A DNA stretch of 53,643 nt from assembly GCA_038869755.1 (NCBI GenBank), contig JAWCQN010000005.1, forward strand, positions 1 to 53,643, given 5' to 3'. Position numbers: made by a program. Positions 9,001 to 15,000 of this stretch are shown here, in pieces. Numbering within the stretch: position 1 is the stretch's first letter; every line of letters begins with the position of its first letter. This DNA comes from Candidatus Pacearchaeota archaeon. Its GTDB lineage: Archaea > Nanobdellota > Nanobdellia > Pacearchaeales > GW2011-AR1.

Positions 9001-12000
9001 AGGAGCAAAGTTACAAAGGGAACTTATACTTAAAATGAGAAGAGATAAACAGATGCAAATAAAAACTGGAGTATTTAATTTTAAGGAAATTGAAGATGGA
9101 TTATTAAAGATATTAGGAGATGGTTTGATGGTTGGAACACTTGTTTTAGATGCGTCAAAATTTAAGGATCCTAACTCATATATTCTTGGAATTTTAGATT
9201 ATTTTAATTCTAAATCTTACGAGGCCTCTGCATCTCCTATTGGAGATGAAAATGGACACTTATACTTAGTTTCATATAAACCAATGGAAGATATTATGAG
9301 GAAGATATAAAATGCCGGAATGTTCATTTTGCCATAAACATTATGATATACCAAGAGGATTAACCTATGTTTTAACTAATGGGGATATTTTATATTTCTG
9401 CTCTTCTAAATGCCATAAGAACTGGAAGCTTGGAAGAAAACCAGAAAAGGTTAATTGGATAAGGAAAAAGGATAAGAGGACTTTACCTAAGGAAATAAAA
9501 GAAGAATAGTAAAACTAAACTCAAAGGCGGCAATAAATTCTTGTAAATGTTATTTGATGAAGAGTATATAGCTTTAATTTATTCAAATGTGCCTAAAGAA
9601 GAGACTTGCCATTAGGAATTTGCTTTCATTTTATCGTCGATAAATGCTTATTTTTATATGGAAAGCTTTTTAAAGGTAAGAGGCTTTTTTTGGATGTAAA
9701 TTTATAGAAAAATTACTAAATTTTCTAAAATTTTATAAAAAATGTCAGAAGAATATAGTGCAAAAAGTATCAAGGTCCTTGAAGGATTGGAAGCAGTAAG
9801 AAAGAGGCCCGCGATGTATATAGGCTCTACTTCTAAGGAAGGCTTGCATCATTGTTTTTATGAGGTTATTGATAATTCTATAGATGAAGTTCAGGGCGGT
9901 TTTGCCAATCTGATTGAAGTTAGGATAAACAAAGATGGGAGTTTGACAGTTATTGATAATGGTAGGGGAATTCCGGTTGATAAACACGAATCAGGAAAGT
10001 CTGCTTTGGAGATTGTTATGACTAAATTGCATGCAGGAGGTAAGTTTGAAAGCAAAGCATATCAGATTTCTGGAGGGCTTCATGGTGTAGGAGTTTCATG
10101 TGTAAATGCTCTATCTAAAAAACTTATTGTTCAGGTGAAAAGAGACGGGAAAATTTATGAGCAGACTTATAAGATAGGAGTTCCTCAAGGTCCTGTCAAG
10201 GTGATTGGAACAGTTAAAAATGGAGAAACAGGCACTTTAGTAACTTTTTATCCTGATGATGAAATATTTTCAACTCTCAATTTTGATTTTTCGGTTATTG
10301 TAACCAGAGTAAGAGAGCTGGCTTTTTTAAATCCCGGGGCTAAGATAATTGTTAAAGATGAAAGAGATGGAAAGAAAGAAGAGTTCTATTATGATGGAGG
10401 ATTAACAGAGTTTGTTAAGTGGATTAATCGTTCAAAATCTCCTATACACAAGCCTATTTATTTCAAAAAACAGACTGATTCAACAATAATAGAAGTGGGT
10501 ATCCAGTATGTTGATGGCTATCAGGAAAATATTTTTGGTTTTGTAAATACAATTAATACAGTTGAGGGAGGAACTCATATTTCTGGGTTTAAAACAGCTT
10601 TAACAAGAGTTATAAATGATTATGCTACTAAGAAAGGAATTTTAAAAGGGAAAGATGAAAAGCTAACTGGAGATGATGTTCGTGAAGGACTCACTGCTAT
10701 TGTTAGTATTAGAATTAAAAACCCGCAGTTTGAAGGACAGACAAAAACCAAGCTTGGAAATTCAGAAGTAAAGAGTTATGTTGATTCAGCTTCTTCAATT
10801 GCCCTTACAGAGTTTTTCGAAGAAAATCCTGATATTGCCTCAAAGATTGCTAATAAATGTATTTCAGCTGCCAAGGCAAGAGAGGCTGCAAGAAAAGCAA
10901 GGGATTTAGTTAGGAGAAAATCTATTGCTGGTTTTTCTGGATTGCCCGGAAAATTAGCTGATTGCTCATCTAAAAAATTTGAACAGACTGAATTATACAT
11001 TGTAGAAGGAGATTCTGCAGGAGGAAGTGCTAAAATGGCAAGAGATAAGGAATTTCAGGCTATTTTGCCATTAAAAGGAAAACCATTAAATGTTGAAAAG
11101 GCAATGCCTCTTAAAGTTTTAGGAAATGATGAAATTGTTAATTTAATCACAGCTATTGGGACAGGAATTAAAGAAAATTTTGATATTAAAAAGTTGAGAT
11201 ATGCTAAGATTATAATAATGAGTGATGCAGATGTTGATGGACAGCATATTAGGACTCTCCTCTTAACATTTTTTTATAGATATGTTCCGGAGTTAATTGA
11301 GGATGGACATGTTTATGTTGCTATGTCTCCTCTATATAGAATAAGGGTTAAAGGAAAGGCGTATTATGTTTACACTGATGAAGAGCTGGAGAAAACACTA
11401 AAAAGTTTTGGTGGAGGAGAGAAAATAGATGTTCAGAGATTCAAGGGATTGGGAGAGATGAACCCTGAACAACTTTGGGATACAACAATGGATCCTAAAA
11501 AAAGAATACTGAAAAAAGTAACTGTTGATGATGCTGTTAGAGCCGACGAAGTATTTACAATGCTCATGGGAGATGCAGTAGGTCCAAGAAGAAAATTTAT
11601 TGAAGTAAATGCAAATATTGCTGAGCTGGATATATAAAAATATGAGGATTAATTTTGATATTAAAAAATAATAGAAGTAAATTATTATGTTTTAAAGGAT
11701 AAAAATGCCAAAGAAAAGAAAAGACAAAGAGGAAAATGAAGAAGATTCAGATGAATTTTCTGATGATGAAGGAAGTGAATCTGTGAAAGAGCAGGAATTT
11801 GAGAATGGAGAGGTTGAGACTCTATCTAAAGGAGAAATTAATCTTAAAGATTTGGGAGAAGATAGGATTATTAATACTGAAATTTCTACAGAAATGCAGA
11901 AAGCATATATTGATTATGCTATGTCTGTTATAGTCTCTCGTGCATTGCCTGCTGTTGAAGATGGTTTAAAGCCTGTTCATAGGAGAATTCTTTATGCAAT

Positions 12001-15000
12001 GTATCAAATGGGTTTGGATAAAGGCCCTACCAAAAAATCAGCAAGTATAGTTGGGGAGGTAATGGGAAAATATCACCCACATGGAGATGCTGCAATTTAT
12101 GATTCTTTGGTTAGAATGGCTCAGGATTTTTCTTTAAGGTATCCTTTAATTCATGGACAGGGTAATTTTGGGTCAATGGATGGAGATGGCGCTGCTGCTC
12201 AAAGATATACTGAGGCCAAACTTAATAAAATTTCCTTAGAGCTATTACAAGATCTTGATAAAGAAACAGTTAATTTAACAGATACTTATGACAATTCAAG
12301 AAAAGAACCTCTCGTTTTGCCGGGCAAACTTCCAAATTTATTAATAAATGGAAGTAGCGGGATAGCAGTTGGAATGGCAACTAACATTCCTCCTCATAAT
12401 CTAACAGAGGTTTGCGATGCTATAATTGCTTTGGTTGATAAACCTACTCTGGAAATTAGAGATTTGCTTGAAATAATAAAAGGACCTGATTTCCCGACCG
12501 GAGGAGTTATGGTTGCTGAGAACTTGTTGGAAATGTATTCAACAGGGAAAGGAGCTGTAACTTTGAGGGGGAGTATTAAAACAGAGAGTGGTAAAACAAA
12601 GGACGCAGTAGTTATAGATGAAATTCCTTATCAGGTTAATAAATCTGAACTTGTTAAACAGATTGCAGAGCTTGCAAGAGATAAAAAACTAACAGATGTT
12701 TCTGATATAAGAGATGAGAGCGCTAAAGGAAAGGTTAGGATTGTTATTGAACTAAGAAAAGGAATTGACCCAAAATTTACTATAAACAGGTTGTATAAAA
12801 GCACTAATTTACAGACAAGATTTAATGCAGCTTTTGTAGCCTTGGACAATGGCGTTCCAAAAACAATGAATTTGAAACAGATTCTGGAAGCTTACATTTT
12901 ATACAGAAGAAAGATAATAAGGAAAAGAAGTGAATTTGATCTGAAGAAAGCAGAAAACAGACTACATATTGTTGAAGGCCTTTTGATTGCCCAAAAACAA
13001 ATTGATAAAGTTATAGAAACAATAAAGAAGAGTAAAGCAACGTTAGAAGCAAGTGAAAATTTACAGAAGAAGTTTTCTTTGACTAAAAAACAGGCCGAGG
13101 CTATTTTAGAAATAACGCTTAAACAGCTAACTGCTCTGGAAAGAGAGAAATTAGAAAATGAAGAAAAATCACTTAAAGAATTAATTAAAGAATTGAAGAT
13201 AATTCTTGGAGATGAAAAAGAAATTTTTAAAATTATTAAGAAAGAACTAAATGAGTTAAAGAAAAATTATGGAGATAACAGGAGAACTAAAATTATTAAA
13301 GCTGTTAAAGAGATAGAAGAAAAAGATCTTGTATTAAAAGAAGATGTTGTTATAACAATAACTGAAAAAGGTTACATAAAGAGAATGCCATTTAAGGCAT
13401 ACCATGAGCAAAGACGTGGGGGTAAAGGAGTTATTGGGGCTGATCTGGCAACTGACGATTTTGTCAAACAAATACTTACCTGTTCAACACATGACTACCT
13501 TCTTTTATTTACAAAAAGAGGCAGATTAATGTGGCTGAAAGCCCATAAAGTTCCTGAAATGCAAAGGTCTGCGAAAGGCCAGGCAATTGTTAATCTTCTT
13601 AGTATTAAGGACGATGAGATATCAAGTGTTATGGCTGTAAAAGATTTCAAGGATTACCTGTTTATGGTAACTAAACTTGGAATGGTTAAAAAAATTAGTT
13701 TAAGTATATTTGCAAAGCCAAGAAATGTTGGAGTTAGAATAATCAATCTGCCAAATGATAATTCAGACTCAGTTGTTGATGTTAAGAGAATTGTTGATAA
13801 ACAGGAAGTAATGTTGATGAGTGCTGAAGGACAGGCAATTAGGTTTAATTCAGATGAAGTTAGAAATATGGGAAGAGCCAGTTATGGGGTATCTGGAATT
13901 AAATTAGATAAGGAGGATTATGTAGTTTCAATGGAAATAGTGCCTATGGAAAAAACTAAAACAACTATTTTGACTATAACAGAAAAAGGTTATGGAAAAA
14001 GATCTTTGGTTGAAGATTATAGGTTGACAGGAAGAGCCGGAAAAGGAGTTATTAATCTTAAGGTAACTGATAAAACAGGTAAGGTTATAAGAACTATTGA
14101 AGTTGATGAAAAAGATACAATAATTGTAACAACAAAGAAAGGAATGGTTATAAGGACCAAAGTTAAATCTATAAGGGTTATGGGAAGAGCTGCTCAAGGC
14201 GTGAGAATAATTAATTTGAAGCAGGGTGATAGGGTAGGAGATGTTGCCAAATTACAGGAGGATAAGGATGTTTCTGTTGAAATTGATAACAATAATTCTT
14301 AAAAAGATTAATTTTCTCAGAAATAGATGGATCAGGATTGGGTTAGTTACGATTTGAATAAGATTAAAGAGATTTATGATTCTTTAATTGAATGTGAGAA
14401 ATTAAAATCATGTGGCTCTGGAGAGGAATTTTTAAATGTTGTTGAACAGATAATTGGAGATTCTGAATGGAAAAATTCTTTAAGCAGATTTATTACTCAA
14501 CAAACCCATGATTATTTAGGGAAAAGGTATAATTATAATGAAGGAGTAGGATTTAAGGGTTTAAATGGAAGATATTTTACTCATAATGAGTATTGCAGAT
14601 ATAGGGATAAAATTTTGAGGGCCATTGTTTCTAAGGCAATCATTGTTAAGTCGTATGGCTACGGAGAATTGTTGCATGAAAATGGATTAGTAGGCTACTT
14701 GGCCAGGCTGGAGACAGATAATTCCAGATATAACCCTTTTGAGAAATAATTATTTAAATTTTTAAATATGTATTTCTTTATATATCAGATTAGATAGAAA
14801 TGGAAAATAATATTTTATTGGATTTCTTAATAGGTATTTTTGGTAATTATCCTATTTTAATTTCTTTTTTTTCAGGATTATTTGGAGGAGAATTAACTAT
14901 TATCGCGTTATCGTTTATCGCTGAATCAGGATATATGTCCTTATGGAACATTATAGTTTTTACAACATTGGGATTAAATATTTCTGATTTAATTATATTT

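Follow-up and report, generated by a model that had tools for sequence, protein, structure and literature searches.

The order-wide loss of Topo VI in Pacearchaeales is real, and it is a new case of the replacement of Topo VI by gyrase already known in Thermoplasma. The source genome (627,282 bases in 20 contigs, 93.23% complete) has an intact gyrB-gyrA pair, both genes on the + strand, in the window, the whole 53,643-nucleotide stretch of DNA analysed. An ancestor of the order probably lost top6B-top6A once gyrase was in place, and gyrase now probably does all double-strand passage.

The gyrase genes

By their sequences, gyrB and gyrA of this contig are an ordinary gyrase. GyrB scores 928 bits against TIGR01059 (cut-off 882) and GyrA 1074 bits against TIGR01063 (cut-off 877), with the ParE models and ParC equivalogs under cut-off; no Topo IV identity emerges from TIGR01058, TIGR01055, TIGR01061 or TIGR01062, all under cut-off, and the GyrA-box is present. 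The motifs of GyrB are EVIDNSIDE (residue 41), DNGRGIP (72), GGLHGVG (111), PQFEGQTK (328), EGDSA (422) and DADVDG (495), which we take to mark its GHKL ATPase, transducer and Toprim parts. The gyrA frame starts 67 bases past the gyrB stop, and its Arg-Tyr motif is catalytic in GyrA proteins. Flanking housekeeping genes, themselves context outside the system, place the gyrase pair on a contig of archaeal origin. The features are:

7161..9033, + strand: housekeeping genes of the TsaD/Kae1 family, the L7Ae family and S28e
9742..11637, + strand: gyrB, DNA gyrase subunit B, 631 aa; GHKL ATPase, transducer and Toprim (PF02518, PF00204, PF01751, PF00986)
11705..14302, + strand: gyrA, DNA gyrase subunit A, 865 aa; PF00521 and six PF03989 blades
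11705..11905, + strand: acidic N-terminal extension of GyrA from the predicted start codon, 67 residues ahead of the first conserved motif, 23 of them D/E
12203..12208, + strand: Arg167-Tyr168, the DNA-cleaving motif (AAQRYTEAK at 164), aligning with the motif of solved GyrA chains
13331..14254, + strand: six-bladed DNA-wrapping C-terminal domain, residues 543-850 (limits approximate), with six PF03989 matches
13409..13429, + strand: GyrA-box QRRGGKG, residue 569, intact as the earlier note had read it and identical at 7/7 positions to the consensus printed in PMC8216471

Absence of Topo VI across the order

The claim that the source genome lacks any Topo VI subunit holds in three kinds of search: PF04406, PF09239 and PF21180 give no match, class-built Top6A and Top6B profiles run on 11,608 six-frame pieces reach best E values of only 0.39 and 0.025, and tblastn finds neither subunit at E<=0.01. 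The extension of this claim to the whole order is also borne out. In a sample of 301 order genomes, about 350 less complete ones of an earlier total of 654 being left out, and with only candidates passing a loose first look being scored, Top6A is over cut-off in none by profile search and Top6B is found in none by an alignment-based search whose positive control scored in 4/5 class genomes; the Top6A Toprim domain is likewise over cut-off in 0/301 of a nearly identical sample. GyrA is present in 290 of the genomes searched for Top6A and Top6B. The same Top6A profile scores in 163/166 genomes of other orders of the class, the only class that the phylum-level search returned, and Top6A is found in 97/98 genomes of a second, overlapping sample. 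All 9 families and 122 genera searched share the loss; their genomes are mostly of 0.4-1.4 Mb as assembled and include four single-contig ones (not necessarily circular) with no Top6A and no Top6B match. Four weak PF04406 matches in the order (E 0.001-0.009) were rejected: three come from frames 19-37 aa long, and the class-built profile does not match the fourth, a frame of 151 aa, at E<=0.01.

The place from which the genes are missing can be located. At 14/20 loci from other orders of the class, a KH-protein gene stands immediately ahead of top6B and ends -105 to +112 bases from the top6B frame. Of 30 such KH loci in Pacearchaeales, 28 are informative (>=980 bases downstream), and none has a Top6 match downstream; unrelated genes fill the slot. 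The source genome's slot lies 6.9 kb inside its contig, contains no N and is empty of top6. One apparent KH-top6B arrangement (genome G321) was left out of the counts, because the fragment sits at the edge of its contig, on the upstream side of KH. These loci answer the caveat of incomplete bins raised earlier, and because other single-copy genes are recovered well in the order (Topo III in 61/61, KH in 44/46), incompleteness cannot yield 0/301. Order-wide loss of Topo VI is thus close to certain.

Origin of the gyrase and order of events

In both a quick tree and a FastTree tree, the order's GyrA proteins form one clade (support 100) within which families cluster; a sequence cut by a contig end (L037) was left out. 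The clade groups with sister-order gyrases against bacteria (SH-aLRT 98 against 14 bacterial rows; FastTree support of 0.86 for the archaeal-side branch against 29 bacterial rows), and neither tree nests it among bacterial GyrA. By these topologies the order's gyrase is no fresh bacterial import, so the word 'bacterial' used for it earlier holds for its deep origin only. The name Pacearchaeales for the order is supported by two records in the clade whose label is 'Candidatus Pacearchaeota archaeon', though another three there carry the depositors' label Woesearchaeota. A long stem branch (0.24 changes per column) leads to the clade, and some of its residues, LP[SA]xEDGLK for example, are specific to the order. 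A bacterial-type GyrA in genome G253 (L035) nests in Bacteroidota among bacterial-looking neighbours; it was regarded as a contaminant, and the order counts for N-terminal length, charge and motifs, and GyrA-box exclude it.

Since all order genomes searched are without both top6 genes and nearly all have gyrase, we infer an ancestral deletion of top6B-top6A. Gyrase and Topo VI would at first have been present together, a state that 67 sister-order genomes still show; with gyrase there, Topo VI would no longer have been needed to relax supercoils, and the gene pair would have been dropped once, in small genomes. Because the GyrA trees have no euryarchaeal rows and no accompanying species tree, we can only infer this succession of gain, coexistence and loss, and gyrase may instead have replaced Topo VI at the moment of its gain, with no period of coexistence. 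Outside the order, 67/68 gyrase-bearing genomes keep Top6A.

Who unlinks the daughter chromosomes?

In the preferred reading, gyrase would clear the positive supercoils that lie in front of replication forks, introduce negative ones and sever the final links that join closed daughter chromosomes; Topo III would unlink gapped intermediates, with Xer and SMC proteins assisting. That gyrase is the final decatenase of the order is likely. The stronger wording of the earlier note, that gyrase must decatenate, is overstated, because archaeal Topo III is kept in 61/61 order genomes and the order's GyrA has no second GyrA-box.

The first GyrA-box matches the consensus at 6-7 of 7 positions in 35/35 order proteins. 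A second one, at >=6 of 7, occurs in 1/35, compared with 3/20 and 10/29 in the comparison sets; the candidate in the source GyrA (TGRAGKG, residue 775) reaches 4 of 7. No known decatenation adaptation was found in the order's GyrA. The decatenating gyrase of the mycobacterial type is similar in that one gyrase serves both supercoiling and final unlinking, but there a second GyrA-box in blade 5, absent here, is tied to decatenation, and the partner type IA enzyme in Pacearchaeales is, unlike that of the mycobacterial type, archaeal Topo III.

Two other features were considered as adaptations and rejected. The N-terminal extension of GyrA has a median of 42 residues in the order (n=35) versus 19 in genomes with gyrase and Topo VI (n=19), lengths that depend on predicted starts, and the difference in net charge is weak (p 0.08). 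The protein is also more basic: with one sequence of short C-terminal domain (L052) left out, median net charge is +19 in the order (n=34) versus +10.5 (n=20) for the C-terminal domain, and +11 versus -4 for the core. Other proteins of the source genome are shifted as well, by a median of +1.65 charges per 100 residues relative to sister-order homologues (16/24 entries positive, one of the 24 being a spurious frame), with excesses of +3.1 for GyrA and +1.8 for GyrB. As other proteins share the shift and the kin are not independent, a basic GyrA is not claimed as an adaptation.

It is rather unlikely that, after the loss of Topo VI, Topo III does most of the unlinking at single-stranded gaps while gyrase mainly manages supercoils. 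Topo III could carry much of this work, as a Sulfolobales enzyme unlinks catenanes efficiently in vitro (PMC11894792). Topo III is, however, near-universal in archaea, so its retention does not point to a new role. Type IA enzymes, moreover, depend on single-stranded DNA and are unable to separate linked rings of closed duplex. In some bacteria gyrase is the only type II enzyme (PMC8216471).

Other type II candidates

The earlier note had called gyrase the only type II enzyme while leaving Topo VIII and Mini-A forms untried; with these included, gyrase is still the only type II enzyme found. Topo VIII was approached through the GHKL domain in five order genomes (the source and the four single-contig ones); each has one GHKL ATPase match, GyrB, and Topo VIII is therefore disfavoured. 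A Toprim search of the source genome yields three matches, namely GyrB, Topo III and a 388-aa frame taken for a putative DnaG.

Mini-A is defined by a length of ~300 aa, RxxY, E and DxDxxG, a WELDAL-like box and a viral neighbourhood, and has no known ATPase partner (PMC7671362). One order genome (G192) holds a gene that fits: 323 aa with RQLFY, DHDPSG and WEVDAL, beside integrase-like and small genes (read by eye). Relatives occur in 2/151 order genomes. It is nonetheless very improbable that an unrecognised or borrowed replacement (Topo VIII, Mini-A, a host protein, or a Topo VI that has strongly diverged and moved elsewhere) does the work: the Mini-A-like genes are sporadic, one is broken, the two examined sit among virus-like genes, and the source genome offers one GHKL match alone. 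Least credible is the reading that the genes are there but missed through incomplete bins or insensitive profiles: although these are uncultured bins and 11/301 genomes (20-90 contigs each) are also without GyrA, one and the same profile separates the order from its sisters, the class-built profiles are blank too, and the KH slot is assembled and empty in 28/28 loci.

Relation to known systems

Thermoplasma likewise has gyrase with Topo III but lacks Topo VI (PMC9348778, PMC3914693, PMC11894792). It belongs to another phylum, and since the sister orders of Pacearchaeales keep Topo VI, the two losses are independent. The loss in Thermoplasmatales is partial, Cuniculiplasma having Top6A/B and Thermogymnomonas keeping Topo VI, whereas here it is order-wide. 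The proposal of a second independent lineage stands as to independence; 'second' is uncertain, as a published table shows other gaps. Supplementary Table 1 of PMC12680538 has two Pacearchaeales rows with gyrase and no Top6A/B, and rows with gyrase, Top3 and blank Top6A/B for Huberarchaeum crystalense (70% complete), BMS3B (97%), WAKO01 (83%) and ANME1a. These four are one genome each, and three of the rows are without other core genes too.

Gyrase in most Pacearchaeota was already published by Villain et al. (2022, PMC9348778); the parts of that paper available to us propose a division of labour between gyrase and Topo VI and name only Thermoplasma as gyrase-only. A 2024 review states that all archaea except Thermoplasmatales encode Topo VI (PMC11894792). 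We found no statement of the Pacearchaeales loss in the literature, though supplements and subscription papers may hold one: 'Pacearchae' is absent from the text layer of the PMC9348778 supplement, tree figures excepted, and three supplementary files of PMC7414124 gave no match.

A loss so cleanly bounded corrects the view of Topo VI as the ancestral, near-universal archaeal type II enzyme. It also provides a matched natural experiment, with Topo VI alone (96 genomes) or both enzymes (67) in close sister orders and gyrase alone in Pacearchaeales, that bears on the open question of how gyrase and Topo VI divide their labour. The both-enzyme orders (Woesearchaeales and SCGC-AAA011-G17 by the PMC12680538 rows) have a related archaeal-clade gyrase with a GyrA-box, and comparison with it would directly test what a gyrase needs when working without a dedicated decatenase. 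A bolder and distinctly speculative reading is that Pacearchaeales are the largest archaeal lineage rewired so that gyrase and one type IA enzyme run the chromosome, that the long-stem GyrA has been retuned to dual supercoiling and decatenation by a non-mycobacterial route, and that gyrase has taken the place of Topo VI repeatedly in reduced archaea, Huberarchaeum among them. In practical terms, Top6A and Top6B are unusable as marker genes for Pacearchaeales.

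Absence of Topo VI from the genome and the order

The source genome comprises 627,282 bases in 20 contigs, with completeness rated 93.23%, and contig C5 is the window. The earlier note held that it carries no Topo VI subunit, and each search bears this out: PF04406, PF09239 and PF21180 give zero matches where four control archaea pass the cut-offs; profiles built from the class (30 Top6A and 28 partial Top6B proteins), run unfiltered on 11,608 six-frame pieces, reach best E-values of 0.39 and 0.025, respectively; and tblastn finds neither subunit at E≤0.01. The Toprim profile recovers three proteins, namely GyrB, a type IA enzyme of 775 aa scoring over the cut-off of the archaeal TIGR01057 model and a putative DnaG, and GHKL profiles recover GyrB alone.

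The order-wide gap proposed in the same note also stands. Among 301 order genomes at least 70% complete (82 at least 90%), a sample of nine families and 122 genera from an order with ∼350 further, less complete genomes, the Top6A profile exceeds its cut-off in none, four weak matches having been rejected. A Top6B alignment likewise matches 0 of the same 301 (as a control it matched four of five class genomes, one through a fragment only), and the Top6A Toprim domain exceeds its cut-off in 0 of 301 in a nearly identical sample. GyrA is matched in 290 of the 301, the 11 misses being assemblies of 20–90 contigs. In a class sample of 201 genomes, Top6A occurs in 0 of 35 order members versus 163 of 166 others, and the GyrA C-terminal domain in 34 of 35 versus 68 of 166; kin are not independent, so these counts, like those for the order, are patterns and not statistics. 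When these two lists are crossed, the genomes outside the order comprise 67 with both enzymes, 96 with Top6A and no gyrase, one with gyrase and a Top6B fragment only, and two with neither domain, Top6B being present in one of the pair. A phylum sample yielded the same class only, with Top6A positive in 97 of 98 non-order genomes. Within the genomes searched, the loss of Topo VI is almost certainly real and order-wide.

The vacant top6B position

In other orders, top6B directly follows an arCOG04150-like KH-protein gene. Of 20 loci, drawn from the best-scoring Top6A matches and not at random, 14 have the KH gene ending within −105 to +112 bases of the top6B frame; in the remaining six the KH gene is 547 bases off (one) or outside the fetched 4.2–4.6 kb (five). 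The order retains the KH gene in 44 of 46 genomes. Thirty of its KH loci were fetched, and the 28 with at least 980 bases downstream show no Top6A or Top6B match at E≤0.01 and have differing neighbours. In the source genome, eIF-1A and KH sit 6.9 kb into contig C13, where the next genes are an unknown frame and a nitroreductase and the sequence contains no N. The ancestral top6B position is assembled and vacant in the order, and incompleteness does not account for the vacancy.

G321, a 99%-complete genome of another order, is the one that has gyrase and a Top6B fragment but no Top6A. The 61-aa Top6B piece (L239:1911-2093, L068) comes from the very end of a 2,095-base contig, where it lies upstream of a KH frame and overlaps it, and the gene 3′ of KH is unrelated. 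Top6A is present in four of five genomes of its family, and the gap in G321 reflects either faulty assembly or a recent loss separate from that of the order.

Other type IIB enzymes

Two other forms had been left aside in the earlier note. Mini-A as an order-wide replacement is ruled out because its occurrence is sporadic: a 323-aa protein of genome G192 shows the Mini-A features listed in PMC7671362, and matches to it occur in two of 151 order genomes, one copy with stops. For Topo VIII, GyrB is the sole PF02518 match in the source genome and in four single-contig genomes from three families, which argues against that enzyme in those five.

Mini-A-like type IIB A-subunit homologues lie at L094:1339-2310 (G192), L101 (G140) and L100 (G099). 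Two examined Mini-A contigs look virus-like by eye, and that of G192 also holds, by eye, an integrase-like gene and a frame resembling reverse transcriptase. A member of order family f8 (G007) encodes a full reverse gyrase (L188:2736-6254; 1172 aa, TIGR01054 1212 bits) on a 327-kb contig shared with its Topo III and KH genes, and combines gyrase and reverse gyrase without Topo VI.

The gyrase and its history

The window carries both subunit genes, 67 bases apart:
9742-11637, + strand, gyrB
11705-14302, + strand, gyrA

Their neighbours are TsaD/Kae1-, L7Ae- and S28e-family genes. Both proteins score over the NCBIfam gyrase equivalogs and under those for Topo IV; the ATPase, Toprim and Arg-Tyr motifs are intact, and Pfam places six blades in the GyrA C-terminal domain. 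The GyrA-box, earlier described as intact, agrees at 7/7 positions with the consensus printed in PMC8216471. Judged by sequence, this is an ordinary gyrase. The GyrA N-terminal extension (11705-11905) is long and acidic and the C-terminal tail short (15 residues); speculatively, the former might stand in for the regulatory acidic C-tail of other gyrases. Flanking frames at 9035-9310 (91 aa) and 14327-14749 (140 aa) have no NCBIfam match.

In GyrA trees (FastTree, 85 rows including 29 bacterial; IQ-TREE quick, a 36-row subset), the order forms one clade (FastTree 1.0; SH-aLRT 100) with a stem of 0.24, within which families cluster, and the gyrases of the order and its sister orders separate from bacteria (FastTree 0.86; SH-aLRT 98). 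Two GyrA records labelled Candidatus Pacearchaeota nest within the order clade, and Top6A is found in 0 of five genomes of that name. The trees fit the derivation of DPANN gyrases from group II Euryarchaeota given by Villain et al. 2022 (PMC9348778). They cover bacteria, the order and its sister orders, no euryarchaeal rows among them, and we infer that gyrase and Topo VI coexisted before the loss.

A second GyrA in one genome (G253; L184, contig C10) is Bacteroidota-like with bacterial-looking neighbours, and was set aside as probable contamination of the bin. The order has gyrB inside the 1.5-kb flank of gyrA in 23 of 30 loci. Of 20 loci from gyrase-plus-Topo VI genomes, only 8 show gyrB inside the fetched gyrA region, and 8 show an scpB-like gene there; two sister-order genomes have gyrA ∼12–13 kb from top6A. 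GyrA inteins (PF14890) occur in G043 (L182:742-4377) and G071 (L183:740-4354), between GNFG and the next Ser, a short way ahead of the catalytic Tyr. Two partial GyrA matches are common among order genomes, which may carry the same intein; it was checked in these two.

Proposed working

No enzyme other than gyrase was found that passes duplexes. By established topoisomerase chemistry, the tasks falling to it would thus be to remove positive supercoils, to introduce negative ones and to sever the last links between closed daughter chromosomes. It would not act alone: a Topo III match over the cut-off occurs in every one of 61 order genomes, and all five genomes checked for tyrosine recombinases and SMC-family proteins have them. 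A Topo III from Sulfolobales is efficient at unlinking catenanes in vitro (PMC11894792). A second GyrA-box, and with it any known decatenation adaptation, was not seen in GyrA. The alignment has nine order-specific columns (35 order rows against 20 and 29 rows), among them those of LP[SA]xEDGLK in place of LPDVRDGLK; the higher positive charge of order GyrA is at least partly proteome-wide. Gyrase is the likely final decatenase of the order.

The published record

No paper stating this loss was found, subscription papers and figure-only data lying outside the search. In their accessible parts, PMC9348778 finds gyrase in most Pacearchaeota, with Thermoplasma named as gyrase-only, PMC11894792 has Topo VI encoded by all archaea except Thermoplasmatales, PMC11302465 gives the same exception plus two Thermoplasmatales having Topo VI, and PMC3914693 names Thermoplasmatales as the exception. 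The loss is not stated in passages of PMC8185306, PMC6349945, PMC13473441 and PMC12411855, nor did a search of the PMC7414124 supplement find it. A 2026 Nanobdellota complete-genome preprint includes 54 closed Pacearchaeales genomes, and its main text has neither ‘gyrase’ nor ‘Top6’. Supplementary Table 1 of PMC12680538 holds two Pacearchaeales rows with gyrase present and Top6A/B blank, uncommented in the passages available, and the order's loss is already visible there. Single rows of that table show the same pattern for Huberarchaeum crystalense, Hydrothermarchaeales BMS3B, Anstonellales WAKO01 and ANME1a, which are candidate further losses. The order had been ranked as the second archaeal lineage after Thermoplasmatales; its loss is independent of that in Thermoplasma, and cleaner, but given these rows it is probably one of several cases and not the second.
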